A stretch of DNA of 23,973 nt from a virus. Position 1 is the first letter of the stretch. Each line of letters starts with the position of its first letter. Below, one piece after another: positions 5,432 to 14,921 of the stretch. Location: positions 1 to 23,973 of the IMG/VR virus record IMGVR_UViG_3300028797_000632. One strand, 5' to 3'. Under the pieces are notes generated by a model. The model made no database searches and was not told the origin of the DNA. It saw nothing but the letters and a program-made list of their open reading frames with translations. The translations under genes and the position numbers were made by a program.

Positions 5432-5644
5432 TTAATTATCCTTTACCCAACTCAGATAACTTTGCCAGTAGCCCAACATCGGCGTTGCATCAACGCACAT
5501 TTGCATACGATGTTTTGCACATTGATAATCTTCCCAAACTCCATCGTCGATTTTTAGCCAACCATCCTCAACTCCGACAATTGTCAGATGATCTTCTACT
5601 GGATCTGCATCAATAAATATATTATACTTGCTGTCAAATTCCAC
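5432..5644 (-). CDS. hypothetical protein (GTG start)
   Basis: 70 aa with an apparent GTG start. The nearest SD (AGGAG) is about 30 nt upstream with a 5-bp hairpin between, so the start is uncertain. Confidence 0.35.
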   Translation of the reverse strand: MEFDSKYNIFIDADPVEDHLTIVGVEDGWLKIDDGVWEDYQCAKHRMQMCVDATPMLGYWQSYLSWVKDN

Positions 5645-5743
5645 GCTGTCGCAATCTAACTACTTCACTGTAGTAACTCCTTTGGTTTGTTCTTGTCGCC
5701 GGATAACAAGTTAATAGTTTGTTTTATCGTCATTGTATATACC

Positions 5744-6235
5744 TCACAACACATATCGCAAGTCTACTTCGTCATTCATTACTTTGATTAAATCTTGTCG
5801 TTTACTAATTAATTTATCCTTGAGAGAATCGATTTCTTCATTAAGGCGGCGAACCACACGCTCTTTGTCTGGCATAGCATTCTTCTTTATCATATAGTGT
5901 GGCGATGTTCTGCCGCCAGAATCGAGAGATATAATCCATTTATCCTCAGATTTGTAATCGCCCCAGTGAAAGCCGCGAAATTTCTCAACGTCATTCAAGT
6001 CAAATACAAATTCAAACTTATCAATATTATCATCTGTTATTTCTATGATAAATTCATTAAAATAGGTATCACACATGTAGTATGTGTCACCGACAATTCG
6101 TACTTTGAATGTCCAATTGTTACTCCAGTATGGATTGTCACGCTTATATATTGGTAGCAATTCCAACATCGGTTCGCAGCGATAAATACCACTCATACAA
6201 AGTTTGTTGGCATTAGATTGTGATAATACTGGCAT
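5744..6235 (-). CDS. hypothetical protein
   Basis: 163-aa ORF with a TGA stop. Confidence 0.5.
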   Translation of the reverse strand: MPVLSQSNANKLCMSGIYRCEPMLELLPIYKRDNPYWSNNWTFKVRIVGDTYYMCDTYFNEFIIEITDDNIDKFEFVFDLNDVEKFRGFHWGDYKSEDKWIISLDSGGRTSPHYMIKKNAMPDKERVVRRLNEEIDSLKDKLISKRQDLIKVMNDEVDLRYVL

Positions 6236-6258
6236 TATTTCTCCTTATGTTTATTATT

Positions 6259-6447
6259 TTAAACAATAGATTGGTTATTGTTTATAATAGTTGACATTAT
6301 ACATTGTTGAGCAACTTTGTATGCGGCAATTAACTCTGTATCGGTTTGAACTAAATCACAGGCGGCGCAATTGTGATCACATATGTTGTTGCGTTCTACA
6401 CATCGTTGCTCAATTTGCATTAACTCCAGTGCTCGTTCTAATGTCAT
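6259..6447 (-). CDS. small Cys-rich hypothetical protein
   Basis: 62 aa with CVERNNICDHNCAACD. It overlaps the next gene by 4 nt (ATGA). Confidence 0.4.
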   Translation of the reverse strand: MTLERALELMQIEQRCVERNNICDHNCAACDLVQTDTELIAAYKVAQQCIMSTIINNNQSIV

Positions 6448-6725
6448 AGACCGAGTTCCCTCTTTGCTTCGTCTGTAAGCTGATATTTAACATTCTCACC
6501 TTCCCAATCCCATCCTTGAATGCGAGCTTCGGCAACTGCAGCGACGTTGAGAACCATACTCCCTTTATTAATAGAACAATCATCATTCATTACAGTGGCA
6601 ATAACTTCGAGTTTAATGGTGTTCTCTGGAATGTAAATGATTGCTGGGACTGTGGTTACTTCGAGATATTCTGGTTCTGGCGGATTTTGTGTTGAAACTG
6701 TGGGTGGTTCATTGTTAATTTTCAT
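6444..6725 (-). CDS. hypothetical protein
   Basis: 93 aa with the SD AAGGAGAACTAATT-ATG. It lies immediately 3' of the tRNA on the same strand. Confidence 0.5.
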   Translation of the reverse strand: MKINNEPPTVSTQNPPEPEYLEVTTVPAIIYIPENTIKLEVIATVMNDDCSINKGSMVLNVAAVAEARIQGWDWEGENVKYQLTDEAKRELGL

Positions 6726-6760
6726 AATTAGTTCTCCTTAATATGATATTTATTATTACA

Positions 6761-6851
6761 CAAGGGCGGAGCGATTCGAACGCTCATCAGCGGCATCAAA
6801 CGCGCTTACAGATTTAGAGTCTGCTGTTTTCGACCATTAAACTACGCCCCT
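6761..6851 (-). tRNA. tRNA with anticodon CUA (amber/UAG-reading); anticodon arm identical to the E. coli tRNA-Tyr su3/supF suppressor; long variable arm (type II); no encoded CCA
   Basis: Reverse complement is AGGGGCG-TA-GTTTAATGGTCGAAAAC-A-GCAGA[CTCTAAA]TCTGT-(22 nt variable)-GAGCG[TTCGAAT]CGCTC-CGCCCTT-G.
- Acceptor stem: 7 bp, with G2·U71.
- U8 and A9 are present.
- D stem: 4 bp.
- T stem: 5 bp, with a canonical TTCGAAT loop.
- Anticodon loop: CU-CUA-AA with U33 and A37.
- The GCAGA-CUCUAAA-UCUG(U) arm matches the tRNA-Tyr(GUA) arm with G34 changed to C. Confidence 0.75.
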
Positions 6852-6929
6852 AAATTAATCACGCCTTTCTCATTCTTCCGCAAAAGCGAGCTTTCATCTC
6901 CCAGTCCGCAAACCTCGACGAGCATTGAC

Positions 6930-6974
6930 CTACCCGCCGTCACCACGGCAGCAGATCATATATTTGTGCCACAT
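6930..6974 (-). CDS. 14-codon leader-like ORF (MWHKYMICCRGDGG) ending in TAG, directly upstream of the suppressor tRNA
   Basis: Very strong SD (CTATAAGGAGGTTAAA-ATG). The ORF terminates at a TAG at 6930-6932. Read-through would add VNARRGLRTGR and then TGA. Too short to assess by composition. Confidence 0.25.
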   Translation of the reverse strand: MWHKYMICCRGDGG

Positions 6975-7012
6975 TTTAACCTCCTTATAGTGGGTTATAT
7001 TGTTGCTATGTT

Positions 7013-7300
7013 TTATTCAACCCATTCCGACTCATACCAAACCATCAGAAACTGATCACCAGAAAACTCGTCGGTAAAAATATCATACCCATCCATTTCA
7101 TCATCAAGATAATAGCTATCTCCATCATCACTGATTAATTCACCAGTTGGATAATCATAATGACAAATGCCGACTAAAACATCACGATCATATGGCGTAT
7201 GAGTTCTGTAATTTATTTCAAGCCTTTTTCGTTCTGGGTTGCTTACCTTTTTTATAATCTCTCTAAGCTTCATCTTCGTCTTCGTCCCAACTATCAACAC
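7013..7300 (-). CDS. hypothetical protein
   Basis: 95-aa track ORF. The likely true start is the internal ATG (MKLREIIKK..., about 7275). A 38-aa ORF (7264..7380, MLATTSEKKIKQ..., TAG stop) overlaps its start in ATGAAGCTTAG fashion. Confidence 0.45.
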   Translation of the reverse strand: MLIVGTKTKMKLREIIKKVSNPERKRLEINYRTHTPYDRDVLVGICHYDYPTGELISDDGDSYYLDDEMDGYDIFTDEFSGDQFLMVWYESEWVE

Positions 7301-7407
7301 TTAATATTTCTACATCAACAGCACCAGTCATATCTTTGAGAGTTTGCTTAATTTTTTTCTCGCTAGTAGTAGCAAGCATATCGCCAACTCGACCTTCCCA
7401 AGTTAAA

Positions 7408-7989
7408 TCAGTTCTTACCGTCGTTATTGCCATCGAATTCTACCAACCTTCTCCAACCAAAACACCATGTCCACGCACGGAGTCCGTTATATCCTGCATC
7501 TACCATATCTTCGAATAACCGCTTGCGACTTGCATCAAACATTGGAATATGTAGTCCGTCGTATGTTGCTCTCTCGCCAGCGTACTTTACTCGCTTTACC
7601 AACTCAGTTTCATAATTTTCTTCACCATTATTCCATACGCAAATTTTTTTGATTGCTTCTTTATCGTCAAACGGCTCGTGATTTCTTTTACAACGTCTAT
7701 AATATTTTTTTAATTGATTTAATCGCCATTTGAGCCGATCTTCTTCTTCAATGTCGATGTATGAACGCTCCGATAGATGAGCGTCAATGCCGTCTTCTTT
7801 GGACGATGACATACTAGTTATCAAATAAGGATAATACGGCATCAAATCCTTTTGCGAGTCAATACGCAACGGAATTAAACCATTGTTCGCAGCGTATATA
7901 CGAACATTACTAAAATCAGTGACCTTGTGAATCATTACGAGCGTATCGTAACAATCGCACTTGCCAGTCAGATAACTAATGTTAATCAC
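7408..7989 (-). CDS. hypothetical protein
   Basis: 193-aa ORF with a TGA stop and no recognised motifs. Confidence 0.5.
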   Translation of the reverse strand: MINISYLTGKCDCYDTLVMIHKVTDFSNVRIYAANNGLIPLRIDSQKDLMPYYPYLITSMSSSKEDGIDAHLSERSYIDIEEEDRLKWRLNQLKKYYRRCKRNHEPFDDKEAIKKICVWNNGEENYETELVKRVKYAGERATYDGLHIPMFDASRKRLFEDMVDAGYNGLRAWTWCFGWRRLVEFDGNNDGKN

Positions 7990-8009
7990 CTCATCTCTTT
8001 AATAATTGA

Positions 8010-8438
8010 TTATCTGCAATAATAATCAATGACGTAATCAATCGCTTGCAACATAGACGGAAATACCACTTGACTATCAACCTTCAACCATGGATATACT
8101 TCCTCATCTGTCGAAAATGAAACCACCGGAATTTTATTATCTACTGCAAACTGTAGTTCTTGTGCTGTTCCTGGACTTGTTCTAGTTCTATCCAAATTAC
8201 AAAGCACCAATCGCGAATGTAGTATTTGATCCATATAGTATTGCTTGACTTGTGTATCAGATTGATGCTTGACTTCTGAATAGCTAAAGAAATCAAGTGG
8301 ATTGATAATTTTTACGGTACAATCTAAATCCTCTGTCACAGTCTTAAACATCTGCGTTGCTTTTGCTCTCCAACTAGCCCCTTCATCTTCTTCGAAGTAA
8401 GATGGCCCAGCAAGATAAATTCTAATTACTTCACTCAT
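8010..8438 (-). CDS. nucleoside 2-deoxyribosyltransferase-like / dNMP N-glycosidase-like protein (Rossmann-like YLAGP family)
   Basis: The N-terminus MSEVIRIYLAGPSYFEEDEGASWR matches the YLAGPxF signature of the nucleoside 2-deoxyribosyltransferase / Rcl-like fold (PF05014-type). Size is about 140 aa. Confidence 0.5.
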   Translation of the reverse strand: MSEVIRIYLAGPSYFEEDEGASWRAKATQMFKTVTEDLDCTVKIINPLDFFSYSEVKHQSDTQVKQYYMDQILHSRLVLCNLDRTRTSPGTAQELQFAVDNKIPVVSFSTDEEVYPWLKVDSQVVFPSMLQAIDYVIDYYCR

Positions 8439-8757
8439 TACTATTCTCCAATTCTATTACAGTCATCAAACAATAATTCGCCATGTCAATTAACGTGTCA
8501 GTAATCGCTTCGTCGCCGCTATCAACTTCAGGATGCTTTGATAAATTAACAAAACGATTATACTTATCACTGATACGAACAGCGCAAGCAGCAAGACCCC
8601 AATCGCTAAAACTGCGTCCAAAAGAATCACCATAAGCCGCATTCTTCTGGATATATGTTGAATGTATTTGCTCACATAATTCTTCATGTCGTTTGATTTT
8701 GTCCATCGTTGTTTCTCCTGTCGTAAAAATATTTATTGTAAGCATCGTAGCGTTCAT
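8431..8757 (-). CDS. small all-alpha hypothetical protein, possibly DUF1599/MazG-like nucleotide-metabolism associated
   Basis: 108 aa. KNAAYGDSFG...DEAITDTLIDMANYCL is reminiscent of small phage nucleotide-modification-associated helical domains. Recalled from memory only, not verified. Confidence 0.3.
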   Translation of the reverse strand: MNATMLTINIFTTGETTMDKIKRHEELCEQIHSTYIQKNAAYGDSFGRSFSDWGLAACAVRISDKYNRFVNLSKHPEVDSGDEAITDTLIDMANYCLMTVIELENSNE

Positions 8758-9271: not shown

Positions 9272-10195
9272 TTATTCTGTTTTATATGTTTCATTGTTAA
9301 CAATGTGATATATCGTTTTAATACTCGAACGTGATTTAAACTTTTCATAGATTTGAGGTACTTTCATCCCGTCTTTATACATCTGCCTAATAGTGTCAAC
9401 CTCATCTTGTGAAAATTTGGCATTATTATTTCTACATCCATTTTGACGTCCTTTTGGTTTTGTGTGCTTTTTTCTATTATTTGGAAGATCGCTCTGTATG
9501 TGCTTAAATGTATTATTGTTCCAAACATCCATAAATGTATTGAAGTTTTCTATCCCTGAAATTTCAAATACTTCAGCGCACGATAACCGCCCTTTGTTGT
9601 ATTCATCTCTTATCAATATTACTTGTTCATCTGTAACAACTTTAATTGATTCATGAGATTGAACTTTATCATAATTGTTTCTATGAAAATTTTTATTTTC
9701 GTCTGTATAAACGTCTAAATGGATATTTTTCCATGTTTTGCCATGCCAGATATCATTGAATGTATTTATGCTAATTTTGTCAGCGTATTTTTTATAAACA
9801 TTCTGTTTGTCATCATGTTTATTATACGACTCCCTAATATCCCAAATCTCTTCAGATGTCATTTTTGAATTTGGATTATCTTCATTTAATAAATAAGAAT
9901 TAAGATTCCCGCCGGTTGATATATTGTACCCAGCATCACGATTTGTAGAATTATATTTCTAAATATAATATATTTCACGTTCATTTAATTTTTCTTTATC
10001 ACATTCTTCAAGGATATCAAAAGAAAATGCATCAACACCGTATTTATACATCGCTTTATACAAATAAGAATCTTTTCTTTCCGACTCTTGTTTATATTTA
10101 CGCTTATGTTCTCCCCATCTTCTTTTTATATCAATTGATTGTCCAATATATACTTTATTGTTAACAAGATTTCTTATAATATATATTCCAGCCAT
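9272..10195 (-). CDS. GIY-YIG homing endonuclease (I-TevI/Seg-like: GIY-YIG domain plus NUMOD/IENR-type DNA-binding repeats) interrupted by one in-frame TAG (9959-9961)
   Basis: N-terminal part (track ORF 9959..10195): MAGIYIIRNLVNNKVYIGQS...RRWGEHK...EREIYYI, then TAG, then in-frame KYNSTNRDAGYNISTGGN... running into track ORF 9272..9862.
- The interrupted stretch aligns with I-TevI ERENFWIKELNSKINGYNI, so the TAG sits inside the conserved domain.
- No frameshift.
- SD GAAGGAAAATT-ATG.
- The downstream half carries two HTH-like repeats (...LSCAEVFEISGIE..., ...DEVDTIRQMYKDGMKVPQIYEKF). Confidence 0.8.
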
Positions 10196-10321: not shown

Positions 10322-10522
10322 TTAATGCGTCGCGACCCAGCTTTTAATGTTTGGCCATTTCCACCGAATTGTAATTAATCTAATCGGCGAATGTTCAGAG
10401 ATTAACAAATTATGTATAAACTGTTTGGACGGAACATTGTCTGTCGGATCTTTATTAACTGTATTTCTGCACTCATTTTTCGCCGCCGTCCAATCGGCAT
10501 TAACATTGAGAATTTTAATCAT
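10322..10522 (-). CDS. hypothetical protein
   Basis: 66-aa ORF whose start overlaps the stop of the ThyA-like gene. Confidence 0.35.
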   Translation of the reverse strand: MIKILNVNADWTAAKNECRNTVNKDPTDNVPSKQFIHNLLISEHSPIRLITIRWKWPNIKSWVATH

Positions 10523-11300
10523 TGTTCTTCAGCGTCTCAACTTTCTCCATAATCATTGGTATTGCTTCGTCCATGATGTCTTTCCAATCACCGTCATACT
10601 CATAAGTAATATCTTCTTTGTCTTCAGCAGTATCAATGCGCCACGCATATCCATGAAGAAGTTCCCAATCTTTTTCGTAGCAATGAAAACTATTCGCTCG
10701 ATGTGTGTAAGTGCCAACTTTAACACCAAGTTCATCGGCGATTCGTTTCTGCAACATAATCAATGCAAACGCATTCATAAATGTTGCTTTGGCGGCATCA
10801 TTTGACCTAAATAACACATCGCAATCAAGTTCACCATTGCGAATGAAATATTGGATATGCTGTAAACAAGCTGGATCATCAGAACCAATATCATCAATAC
10901 TACGAATAAACATAACCGCCCTTCTACTCGACGGATTGCGACGAAGTTCATTTATCACAAAACTAATCTGATTAATTAGATAACCTTCACGCCCAGGATA
11001 TTCCGTCATACGCTGATGGTATGTGTATGTCCAGTTGCCACGATCAACTTCGAAATCCAGAATACCATCCAACATTTCCATGACGTATTGCTGAAGTTCT
11101 TCTGGCCCGCCAATAAAGCATTTTGATATCATCGGTTCTCGTAGCGGATATTGGATTACCATTGTCGCAGATAATTCTTTCTGTCGTGTGTTCCAGTCGG
11201 CACAGTCAGTAACGTCGCCGCAATAATATAATGTCGTTAGCGCTTTGTGATATGCTTGAGGCAGTGTATCTTCACAAAATAAATATTCTTTCATTGGCAA
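10515..11300 (-). CDS. ThyA-family enzyme: thymidylate synthase or dUMP hydroxymethylase (dUMP-specific Asn retained)
   Basis: Aligns to ThyA as follows:
- NPSSRRAVMFIRS with DPDSRRIIVSAWN.
- PACLQHIQYFI with APCHAFFQFYV (catalytic Cys).
- GELDCDVLFRSNDAAKATFMNAFAL with [27 protein letters not shown].
Asp and Asn are conserved, and the Asn implies dUMP rather than dCMP as substrate. The N-terminus is divergent. SD AAGGAAAATTG-ATG. Confidence 0.75.
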   Translation of the reverse strand: MPMKEYLFCEDTLPQAYHKALTTLYYCGDVTDCADWNTRQKELSATMVIQYPLREPMISKCFIGGPEELQQYVMEMLDGILDFEVDRGNWTYTYHQRMTEYPGREGYLINQISFVINELRRNPSSRRAVMFIRSIDDIGSDDPACLQHIQYFIRNGELDCDVLFRSNDAAKATFMNAFALIMLQKRIADELGVKVGTYTHRANSFHCYEKDWELLHGYAWRIDTAEDKEDITYEYDGDWKDIMDEAIPMIMEKVETLKNND

Positions 11301-13637: not shown

Positions 13638-14921
13638 TTATTTAGCACTATTTCTTCTTAGATAATCATGTTCAATAGACACCTTGGGATTTCTCCGATA
13701 ATTATAGATTTTCTCAATCTGAAGAAGAGCGTCTCTAATCGACTTAATCTTTGTCATTTTCCCATAATTTTTGCGCAGTCTTTTCAGCAGAAATTCGTTA
13801 TCAATTTCTGGATGATTAAAACAAAATGCAAGAGCAATCTTGAAGTAATCTCCGCGACCGCCAACTTCACTTACGATGTTTTTGAACTTCAATTCATATG
13901 TAAGAACAGAGGTTGCTCTCTTAACATCATCGGCAGAACATTTAAGTTTACCACTTCTAATAATTTCGGCATCGGCAGCTGTGATTGATCCAGAGCCAGT
14001 AACTGCGTGATAAACATTGGTAAACCCGACGTCCTCAAATCTGCGATACAACTCCATGAAATTGCGATAGTCGTTTGAAGTTTTTGCCAAACGTGCAATA
14101 TGGTTCATGTTTGAATCTGCAAACTGAATAGTGTTAGTTTTGGAAGCAAAACCACTCTTGTCAACAGTGGTCACATTGGTATTTTTCTTGGATTTATTAC
14201 TGTTTATTCTTTCCTTGTATATCTTGGACTTGGCATTTATTTCACTTACAGCTTGATTAAAATCTCCAAAACCGTGAACACACATATAGTAATTGCTCCA
14301 CTTATCTTTATCCACAAGCATATATCCTTCTTTGTGCATCCACGGAACAACATCTTCATTTTCATTCATATATCTATGAGTAAAATGATCATTTCCTTTG
14401 CTAAACACTTTTGATTTATCATTGCTATATAAATCGTCCGTTATCGTCATAAAGTGACCGATGACTTTGTCTTCTACGGTTTCGATATACGAAAGAATAA
14501 CTTGCGGTCTTTTATGCTCCGCACTTCTATCCTTTACTTTAACACCATATATCATTTCATCACTCATCATCTCTTCTAAGTAGTTCATTTTTTCGATCTC
14601 CTCTTCTGTGTATTTAAACCCTTCCGATCTTGGCGCACCGCCATAAACCTAATTGTAATATTTTCTATTACGAACAACGTCAAGTTTTTGAGTTATCTTT
14701 TGTTCTTGCTTATATAGTTCTGCTTCAGTTTTACACACTTTAAGTATTTTTTTCTTAAAATTCTATCTGCCATATAACTTAAGCGCTTTCAAAAATGCCG
14801 TTCCACTGCCTAAGTAGTCATCTTCTTCTATTGCGCAATGGCAAGTTCTTCTACCAACATATTCCATATTGTTAATAAGATTTGTAGTACAATAAATGTA
14901 ACGATTAGTTATTTCTTTCAT
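13638..14921 (-). CDS. second GIY-YIG homing endonuclease, interrupted by two in-frame TAG codons (14763-14765 and 14649-14651)
   Basis: From the ATG at 14921 (SD AAGGAGTAATA-ATG) the minus-strand reading is MKEITNRYIYCTTNLINNMEYVGRRT...ALKLYGR-TAG-NFKKKILKVCKTEAELYKQEQKITQKLDVVRNRKYYN-TAG-VYGGAPRSEG...
- This runs in frame (111 codons) into the 316-aa track ORF 13638..14588.
- It carries GIY...YVG motifs and an RNRKYYN-TAG segment homologous to EREIYYI-TAG in the first endonuclease and to ERENFWIK in I-TevI.
- The pieces were missed by the ORF track because they are shorter than 60 aa. Confidence 0.7.

Follow-up and report, generated by a model that had tools for sequence, protein, structure and literature searches.

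The 23,973-nucleotide (nt) stretch of viral DNA analyzed here (IMG/VR record IMGVR_UViG_3300028797_000632, positions 1 to 23,973; hereafter the window) encodes on its minus strand a transfer RNA (tRNA) with the anticodon CUA. Our best explanation, to which we assign a probability of roughly 0.7, is that this tRNA is a functional amber suppressor translating UAG as glutamine, i.e., the same kind of device as in code-15 phages, and that within the ~46 kilobases (kb) of the phage genome that are visible (its late genes lie outside the window) it is required for full-length protein from two GIY-YIG homing endonuclease genes only. Sequence comparison suggests the tRNA to be a chimera that combines a class-II variable region and a Tyr-type anticodon stem with a Gln/Trp-type acceptor end.

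A canonical tRNA with the anticodon CUA

The sole tRNA that ARAGORN detected in the window spans 6760-6852 (minus strand) and has the anticodon cta, and Rfam family RF00005 matched 6761-6851 on the same strand over model positions 1-71 without irregularity (58.9 bits, E = 1.3e-10; gathering score 29). Both programs confirm the canonical minus-strand tRNA that the initial annotation had proposed from the letters alone, with CUA rather than a sense anticodon, and the parts it had named (a 7-base-pair (bp) acceptor stem, U8 and A9, the D stem, the T arm, a 22-nt variable region and no encoded CCA) are all present.

6761-6851, minus strand: amber suppressor tRNA, anticodon CUA (ARAGORN, Rfam, covariation, and an identical gene in three other assemblies)
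6815-6817, minus strand: anticodon CUA (nt 34-36) in the loop CUCUAAA, with A36-A37-A38 in the loop (register of ARAGORN and Rfam)

In the Rfam register, the 5′ half of the tRNA reads AGGGGCG / UA / GUUU-AAUGGUCGA-AAAC / A / GCAGA-CUCUAAA-UCUGU, and the 3′ half consists of the 22-nt variable region followed by GAGCG-UUCGAAU-CGCUC / CGCCCUU / G. The acceptor stem (AGGGGCG/CGCCCUU) starts with an A1-U72 pair, followed by a G2.U71 wobble and G3-C70, and the discriminator base is G73, located at 6761. Further features are A26, U33, U35, a G10-C25 pair, a D loop of 9 nt that contains GG, and a T loop of canonical type. The molecule thereby displays the hallmarks of a canonical tRNA (cloverleaf, 7/5 branch, U8, G18G19, UUCRANY-type T loop, score above threshold) and those of an amber suppressor, namely CUA at positions 34-36 of a 7-nt loop with U33, an arrangement kept in 4/4 homologous sequences.

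Three more assemblies (L001, L002 and L003) carry an identical copy of the gene and its flanks, and homologs of the tRNA occur in three IMG/VR phage contigs: L006, L008 and L007, the last being the same contig as L020 and L040. Across the four distinct sequences (window, L006, L007/L020/L040 and L008), 96 of the 96 cloverleaf pair cells (100%) hold standard pairs as compared to 39-51% in slid controls, which places the tRNA far above chance. Compensatory double changes were seen at pairs 4-69 and 5-68 and at two pairs of the T stem, four in all; pairs 1-72, 2-71 and 3-70, the whole anticodon arm, U35, G73 and G10-C25 are invariant. In the variable arm, the conserved part is a 3-bp stem with an 8-nt loop, flanked by four unpaired nt on either side. 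The tRNA gene is thus real and under selection.

Other labels were considered for this tRNA. ARAGORN by default names a CUA tRNA 'Pyl', which sets a trap for annotation. Pyrrolysine tRNAs are compact, their variable loop being 3 nt long and their small D loop devoid of G18G19, and are accompanied by pylS and pylBCD; the 22-nt variable region, the 9-nt D loop with GG and the canonical T loop rule this identity out. No Pyl-pathway family was matched among the window proteins scanned against Pfam or PHROGs. An allo-tRNA is excluded by the 7/5 branch, fully paired in all homologs, and a tRNA-Sec was dropped on structural grounds. Under permissive settings, Rfam returned the tRNA and no further RNA family for 6500-7150.

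The residue specified by TAG in phages carrying this tRNA family

The contigs that carry a homolog are clearly TAG-recoded in their late genes. In-frame TAG codons number eight in TerL and four in the portal gene of L008; in L020, a TerS-like gene has 12, TerL 11 and the portal gene three. When orthologue pairs among L006, L008 and L020 were compared at the codon level, glutamine (CAA/CAG) stood opposite TAG in six of ten high-identity contexts; tyrosine (0/31), serine and leucine never did.

For a broader comparison, TerL was aligned across 80 IMG/VR loci with orthologues, condensed to 29 representatives below 97% identity; these loci were used since a tblastn search of TerL against an annotated phage collection gave one weak match only. 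TAG is absent from 26 of the 29 representatives and occurs 14 times in L119, ten times in L040, whose tRNA is 98% identical to that of the window, and nine times in L041. In the 590 cells that other sequences contribute to the 22 TAG columns, glutamine is found 288 times (CAA 167, CAG 121), followed by glutamate (88), lysine (54), leucine (32), serine (4) and tryptophan (1), and tyrosine is not found at all. Glutamine is the majority residue in 11 of the 22 columns (P ~2e-9) and is invariant or nearly so in columns 49, 68, 120, 420 and 519. Summed BLOSUM62 scores over the TAG columns likewise place glutamine on top (54.8), ahead of glutamate (32.3), lysine (15.6), serine (-5.3), tyrosine (-31.7) and leucine (-35.7). 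Only residues with readable codons were counted, because database proteins may carry TAG already translated as glutamine; residues of such proteins were left out, an example being 'Q79' of P0001, a TAG translated under code 15.

In-frame TAGs in conserved genes, purifying selection and alignment with glutamine are what characterizes code 15; the endonuclease genes of the window (see below) and the relatives with the same tRNA both conform to it, and together these alignments indicate that TAG is read as glutamine in phages carrying this tRNA family. The tRNA itself would be the decoder.

In-frame TAG codons of the window phage

The 41 ordinary genes of the window contain no in-frame TAG in 6,586 codons. 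As the initial annotation had anticipated, the window does hold in-frame TAGs for the tRNA to decode. We located three (9959-9961, 14763-14765 and 14649-14651), all of them within two GIY-YIG homing endonuclease genes. Among Gln-type codons, TAG accounts for 3/20 in the endonuclease genes versus 0/181 elsewhere (Fisher p ~0.0009).

9272-10195, minus strand: GIY-YIG homing endonuclease 1, 307 codons, TAG at codon 79 (9959-9961) (Pfam GIY-YIG, E = 5e-13)
13638-14921, minus strand: SegE-like GIY-YIG homing endonuclease 2, ~427-430 codons, two in-frame TAGs (a single frame without TAA or TGA)
22077-22079, minus strand: TAG ending a DUF551 gene (22077-22598); the next open reading frame (ORF), 21876-22073, is in the same frame
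7263-7265, minus strand: TAG ending a 56-codon ORF (7263-7433); read-through adds 14 residues before a TGA

TAG79 of endonuclease 1 lies inside the catalytic domain (…EREIYYI-TAG-KYNS…GYNIS) and is spanned both by the Pfam GIY-YIG match and by PHROG 7168, which aligns with residues 1-260. A sister phage, represented by one sequence from four samples (L033-L036) with ~80% DNA identity and the same synteny, encodes an orthologue with four in-frame TAGs. Of these, TAG79 is common to both phages, and the other three stand opposite CAT (His), CAA (Gln) and CAG (Gln) in the window. Between the two phages, the ratio of nonsynonymous to synonymous substitution rates (dN/dS) amounts to 0.12 upstream of codon 79 and 0.16 downstream, with dS at ~0.8-0.96. 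Since the region 3′ of TAG79 has been kept under purifying selection since the two phages diverged, TAG79 is to be taken as a translated codon rather than a lesion. The shared TAG, the dN/dS of 0.16 downstream and the fact that all in-frame stops are TAG rule out a pseudogene.

The N-terminus of endonuclease 2 matches Pfam SegE_GIY-YIG over residues 8-91, including the first TAG (E = 3.3e-5; 24.5 bits, just below the 25-bit cut-off). Its orthologue in L011 has the same fused frame with a single TAG at the domain linker. Taken over the window, L033 and L011, eight of eight in-frame stops in these endonuclease genes are TAG, at seven distinct positions, and none is TAA or TGA. Standard-code gene callers break both genes, endonuclease 2 into ORFs of 52 and 316 amino acids (aa), which is a second trap for annotation.

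TAG is also rare as a stop codon, ending a few genes at 22077 and 7263 and two more in L010, a contig that extends upstream of the window into replication genes. The ORF following the DUF551 gene (21876-22073, minus strand; 66 codons) is Zn-ribbon-like and has its own ribosome-binding site (RBS) and ATG, and the TAG at 22077-22079 is probably a true stop that would be partly read through by the suppressor. In L010 (~1351-2496), a TAG-ended Sipho_Gp157 gene is followed by AAA_24 in the same frame. Suppression would fuse the DUF551 protein with the Zn-ribbon ORF and Sipho_Gp157 with AAA_24; as the downstream genes each have an RBS or start of their own, this arrangement may be coincidence. With the exception of the two endonuclease genes, the early genes follow the standard code. 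In code-15 systems, recoding is concentrated in late (structural and lysis) genes.

A tRNA-Tyr-like arm joined to a Gln/Trp-type acceptor end

For a like-for-like comparison we used tRNAs encoded by phage loci of the TerL family, whose acceptor ends are as follows.

Phage-family tRNA-Tyr (GTA): G1-C72 and A73 in 12/13 distinct genes
Phage-family tRNA-Leu: A73
Phage-family tRNA-Ser: mostly G1-C72 and G73
Phage-family tRNA-Gln (UUG): U1-A72, G2-C71, G3-C70 and G73
Phage-family tRNA-Trp (CCA): A1-U72 (or G1.U72) and G73
Window-type long-arm CUA tRNAs: A1-U72, G2.U71, G3-C70 and G73

Over its whole sequence, the window tRNA is closest to tRNA-Tyr among the sense isotypes (identity 0.60-0.67), but hardly more so than to tRNA-Ser (0.63) and tRNA-Leu (0.62); identity to tRNA-Gln(UUG) is at most 0.49. 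The likeness to tRNA-Tyr is greatest in the anticodon arm: one tRNA-Tyr(GTA) of the L040 family (GCAGA-CUGUAAA-UCUGU) differs from the suppressor arm at nt 34 only, and the arm of E. coli tyrT (GCAGA-CUGUAAA-UCUGC) matches it at all of the 17 positions but nt 34 and nt 43. A tRNA-Tyr-like anticodon arm changed at nt 34 had been described in the initial annotation, and both comparisons uphold it. With E. coli trpT, the window tRNA shares the 5′ acceptor strand AGGGGCG, six of the seven bases of the 3′ strand, G73, U8A9 and A26. The loop CUCUAAA is equally one step from tRNA-Trp, being the trpT loop with C35U, i.e., the Su7 change. The E. coli genes trpT (NC_000913.3), tyrT and glnV were taken by coordinates for these comparisons.

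Glutamine identity resides in U35, G36, pairs 1-72 and 3-70, the discriminator and the 10-25 pair (PMC9976931). Apart from G36, the window tRNA has the corresponding set for glutaminyl-tRNA synthetase (GlnRS), namely U35, a weak A1-U72 pair, G3-C70, G73 and G10-C25, invariant in all homologs. It is not a natural tRNA-Gln, given its 22-nt variable region in place of a class-I loop of 4-5 nt and its low overall similarity. A leucine tRNA of the supP type, marked by A73 and A15-U48, is at odds with G73 and with the BLOSUM score of leucine at the TAG columns, A73 being crucial for leucine identity (PMC9976931). Because the arm matches tRNA-Tyr while the acceptor end matches the Trp/Gln type, the tRNA appears to be chimeric.

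Horizontal acquisition and wider occurrence

DNA similarity between the window phage and the L040, L006 and L008 phages is confined to the ~98-nt tRNA gene (~97-98%, 88% and 85% identity, respectively), and these phages have no genes in common with the window phage except for a distant GIY-YIG gene. Synteny links the window phage to L005, an IMG/VR contig of 205 kb, and the ribonucleotide reductase (RNR) neighborhood of the window recurs in 12 further contigs. No tRNA was found at the examined loci of L005 or of these 12 contigs. In the recoded phages, the tRNA directly adjoins a TAG-containing homing endonuclease gene, of the GIY-YIG type in L020 and the HNH type in L006 and L008. Since nothing else in the DNA is common to the window phage and these unrelated recoded phages, and since the examined loci of its relatives lack the tRNA, we infer that the gene was acquired horizontally, as a unit.

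Searches of 50,697 phage records, by megablast with 5500-8500 and by blastn with the tRNA, gave no match, nor did blastn of the tRNA against E. coli genomes, even at E = 10. An exact-pattern scan with the anticodon left free yielded no match in reference bacterial genomes and only the L007/L040 contig in JGI metagenomes; these scans therefore revealed neither a parent with a sense anticodon nor a host copy.

A relaxed pattern search uncovered further CUA tRNAs with a long variable arm in ~20 IMG/VR contigs (L123-L142) of up to 395 kb, so the architecture is widespread in the data. Most of these contigs are strongly TAG-recoded, with ORF coverage rising by 46-84% when TAG is taken as sense (TGA control, 0-13%). 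Their tRNAs mostly have U1-A72 and A73, and several stand in tandem with a class-I CUA tRNA of 73-75 nt. The long-arm CUA tRNAs of L132 and L135 differ from the window type in having G1-C72 and A73 and may be truly supF-like; that of L127, with G1-C72 and G73, is Ser-like. An incomplete literature search found no published description of a long-arm CUA suppressor.

Proposed charging by a host synthetase and alternative explanations

In the mechanism that we favor, the tRNA would be transcribed within the long minus-strand operon, excised by RNase P and 3′ processing enzymes of the host, completed by the host CCA-adding enzyme and charged by the host GlnRS. The charging step is proposed on the strength of two precedents. 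One is Su7, the E. coli tRNA-Trp whose anticodon is CUA, which loses recognition by tryptophanyl-tRNA synthetase and is charged by GlnRS (Yaniv et al. 1974, as cited in PMC2965240 and PMC9976931); the other is an amber tRNA-Ser, which accepts glutamine once pairs 1-72 and 3-70 have been exchanged (reference 82 of PMC9976931, as described there). In code-15 phages, the presence of Sup-CTA tRNAs is established, and host GlnRS has been hypothesized to charge them (bioRxiv 10.1101/2021.08.26.457843; PMC10607447; PMC9523058); how these suppressors get charged was called an open question by the authors who described them (bioRxiv 10.1101/2021.08.26.457843).

Several points weigh against this reading. 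At the acceptor end, the first pair is A-U and not the U-A of tRNA-Gln, and pair 2-71 is G.U and not G-C; the GlnRS determinant G36 is necessarily A36 in a CUA anticodon, and natural tRNA-Gln offers no parallel to the long variable arm. The host may also lack a GlnRS; in a host using the route via glutamyl-tRNA synthetase (GluRS) and GatCAB, an anticodon with C34 would be a poor GluRS substrate (PMC9976931). The window tRNA has an A31-U39 pair, which in some E. coli amber suppressors favored mischarging by lysyl-tRNA synthetase (LysRS) (PMC2965240). Within the lineage of the window, only a small and varied set of residues faces TAG (Q, Q, H, H, I and E). Finally, the phages from which the glutamine reading was measured are seen in part, and a second, class-I suppressor could lie elsewhere in their genomes; class-I and class-II CUA tRNAs do occur in tandem in other recoded phages.

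The initial annotation had called the tRNA supF-like, which would make it a tRNA-Tyr with G34C that is charged by tyrosyl-tRNA synthetase and inserts tyrosine at UAG. As a description of a phage-encoded, UAG-reading tRNA with a class-II body this holds, and the long variable arm, U35, the near-identity of the anticodon arm to tRNA-Tyr and the rank of tyrosine as nearest sense isotype all speak for it. As a statement about the inserted residue it is very improbable. Tyrosine identity requires A73 in all domains, along with U35, and G1-C72 in Bacteria (PMC9976931); the window tRNA and all homologs have G73 and A1-U72 instead, at positions where 12 of the 13 phage-family tRNA-Tyr genes keep A73 and G1-C72. 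The candidates that come nearer to supF at the acceptor end (L132 and L135) look different there, and tyrosine is never opposite TAG, be it in the TerL columns (0/590; BLOSUM -31.7 versus +54.8 for glutamine), the orthologue pairs (0/31) or the window lineage (0/6). A supD-like tRNA, whose long arm would make it a substrate of seryl-tRNA synthetase (SerRS) so that serine is inserted, has points in its favor: a long variable region and G73 are both serine features and SerRS ignores the anticodon, which makes this the easiest route to a suppressor. We nonetheless hold serine insertion to be improbable. G1-C72 and G2-C71, absolutely conserved in most bacterial tRNA-Ser (PMC9976931), are replaced by A1-U72 and G2.U71 in all four sequences, and altered 1-72 and 3-70 pairs are exactly the change that turns an amber tRNA-Ser into a glutamine acceptor. 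In addition, the variable arm is conserved only as a 3-bp stem with an 8-nt loop, serine fills just four of the 590 TerL cells, and glutamine is invariant or nearly so in five of the TAG columns.

Little weight is likewise given to ambiguous charging, in which CUA combined with A31-U39 would be mischarged by LysRS or by several synthetases, so that UAG would mean lysine or a mixture of glutamine and lysine. E. coli amber suppressors with A31-psi39 received lysine and C31-G39 favored glutamine (PMC2965240). Lysine is the third most common residue opposite TAG (54/590). The BLOSUM sums nevertheless favor glutamine (54.8 versus 15.6), as do the columns with invariant glutamine. The discriminator speaks against lysine as well, E. 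coli tRNA-Lys having A73 and the window tRNA G73. In other code-15 phages, proteomics gave glutamine at TAG (PMC9523058). A different kind of alternative is that the tRNA does not serve the phage's own coding, being a weapon or counter-defense (read-through of host UAG stops, or replacement of host tRNAs cleaved by nucleases) or a passenger traveling with the endonucleases, whose TAGs would be relics of a recoded genome. Phages that keep a Sup-CTA tRNA without recoding are documented, and a role in weakening the host has been proposed for them (PMC12386605). This alternative could also draw on the horizontal acquisition, the confinement of in-frame TAGs to mobile endonuclease genes (Fisher p ~0.001), a putative endolysin without TAG in 185 codons (see below) and the few genes that TAG still ends. 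We consider it unlikely, because purifying selection through and after TAG implies that the resident endonuclease genes functionally require the suppressor, and because the same tRNA family is found in phages that could not produce their terminase and portal proteins without it. The two kinds of role are compatible with each other.

Going beyond reading UAG as glutamine, we tentatively propose, with more doubt than belief, that a chimeric class-II suppressor charged by GlnRS is passed between unrelated phages and licenses selfish homing endonucleases. If so, it would be a natural counterpart of identity-swap experiments and an answer to how code-15 suppressors get charged. The TAGs would tie endonuclease expression to the suppressor, such that tRNA and endonucleases travel and work together, and this license arrangement could be the very first step of a code change.

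Genomic context and expression of the tRNA gene

All genes of the window are on the minus strand and belong to an early, nucleotide-metabolism region that encodes a class II RNR, an NAD-dependent DNA ligase, a dUTPase, a nucleoside 2-deoxyribosyltransferase and a thymidylate-synthase-like protein. No other tRNA was found in the window, L001 or L010. Upstream of the tRNA lies a leader:

6852-7012, minus strand: 161-nt leader upstream of the tRNA, GC content 45% versus ~38% in the window (composition, promoter scan)

The leader is moderately structured (z = -2.06). A scan for sigma-70-like promoters immediately upstream of the tRNA was negative, with matches at or below shuffle expectation; the tRNA is therefore probably transcribed along with the minus-strand operon and then released by processing. 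The leader also contains a mini-ORF of 14 codons (6930-6974, minus strand; MWHKYMICCRGDGG) that has a strong AAGGAGG RBS and ends in TAG, which could be chance or a suppression-sensing leader.

The longer contig L001 of this phage goes on to encode an N6/N4 methyltransferase and an integrase. Beyond the low end of the window, it encodes the integrase at 17920-19155 (plus strand) and then a convergent gene with a SPOR-like C-terminus at 19572-20129 (minus strand), which is probably an endolysin; its 185 visible codons include no TAG. As the integrase adjoins the window, the phage is probably not strictly lytic, in contrast to the lytic-phage setting initially assumed. It may be temperate, and its late genes are perhaps not heavily recoded.

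Other features of the region concern its gene content. A protein of 811 aa (15253-17688, minus strand) contains the shoulder domain of the major vault protein (Pfam PF11978). Within the annotated phage collection, its relatives come only from uncultured phages of 462-735 kb (33-35% identity), and a search of bacterial reference genomes gave no relative and hence no prophage match. The closest RNRs of cultured phages (~52%) are split between a Bacteroides phage and Clostridioides phages. RNR matches in L024, L026, L027, L031 and L032 span 3.2-3.3 kb as compared to 2.3 kb in the window, and the ~1 kb of extra length suggests an inserted intein or an intron with a homing endonuclease. At least six DUF551 paralogues with the common motif WIPCSERLPE…AWMPLPEPY lie in tandem at 18484-23720 (minus strand). 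Finally, genes at 644-1138, 8010-8757 and 10515-11300 (minus strand) encode the dUTPase, the nucleoside 2-deoxyribosyltransferase, a DUF1599 protein and the divergent thymidylate-synthase-like protein (a partial Pfam match only), a cluster that could point to a modified-base pathway.

Implications

Occurring in phages where TAG stands for glutamine, this tRNA family raises the question of whether a class-II body can be a natural glutamine adaptor. It offers a testable case for charging, with the first three acceptor pairs, the discriminator, G10 and U35 frozen in a GlnRS-compatible state and neighboring positions co-varying. The window phage looks like an early or minimal stage of recoding, having acquired a suppressor and showing rare TAG stops and sense TAGs only in mobile endonucleases, which bears on models of how a code change begins.

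Comparison with known systems

A close match at the acceptor end is Su7. The trpT acceptor stem (AGGGGCG/CGCCCCU) is one base from that of the window tRNA (AGGGGCG/CGCCCUU), and both have A1-U72, G3-C70 and G73. In contrast, tRNA-Trp is a class-I tRNA with a 5-nt variable loop, the anticodon stem CCGGU/ACCGG and other D-arm details. A natural analog of Su7 is found in L082 (IMGVR_UViG_3300045988_107333), whose class-I CUA tRNA is the phage-family tRNA-Trp(CCA) with only C35T.

With supF (su+3), the window tRNA shares the class-II body, an essentially identical anticodon arm (GCAGA-CUCUAAA-UCUGY) and the reading of UAG, but it lacks A73 and G1-C72, its variable region is 22 rather than 13 nt long, and the decoded residue appears to be glutamine instead of tyrosine. 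The switch of supD from serine to glutamine resembles it in that a class-II amber suppressor has its charging set by pairs 1-72 and 3-70. As represented in PMC9976931 (its reference 82), this switch is experimental proof that GlnRS accepts a long-arm CUA tRNA with the right acceptor stem. Unlike the engineered E. coli construct, the window tRNA is natural, with another D arm and three conserved variable-stem pairs. A parallel to supE, i.e., tRNA-Gln with CUA, lies in glutamine at UAG, G73, G3-C70, G10 and a weak first pair, although supE is of class I, has U1-A72 and G2-C71, and is unrelated in sequence. Allo-tRNAs (PMC5389517) also have a long variable arm, and some occur in phages or carry stop anticodons, but their acceptor/T branch is 8/4 or 9/3 as opposed to the canonical 7/5 of the window tRNA.

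As a system, the suppressor belongs to the known kind of phage that reads TAG as glutamine, and it is its chimeric identity design that sets the tRNA apart. To call it unusual, as was initially done, is thus an overstatement: suppressor tRNAs are known from such phages and also from phages with Sup-CTA and little or no recoding (PMC12386605). Like the code-15 phages (crAss-like, Lak and phAss-1; Borges et al. 2021/2022, Peters et al. 2022, PMC10607447), the present case features a phage CUA tRNA, in-frame TAGs aligned with glutamine, TAG as a rare stop and a low-GC genome; in both, no phage aminoacyl-tRNA synthetase was found, and host charging is therefore assumed. The suppressor of phAss-1 is of the Gln type according to tRNAscan-SE (PMC10607447), whereas the window tRNA combines a class-II body with a Tyr-type anticodon stem. 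A further difference is that TAG still serves as a stop in a few genes of the window phage. Recoding differs as well, being seen in the visible 46 kb only in two endonuclease genes and not in structural or lysis genes.

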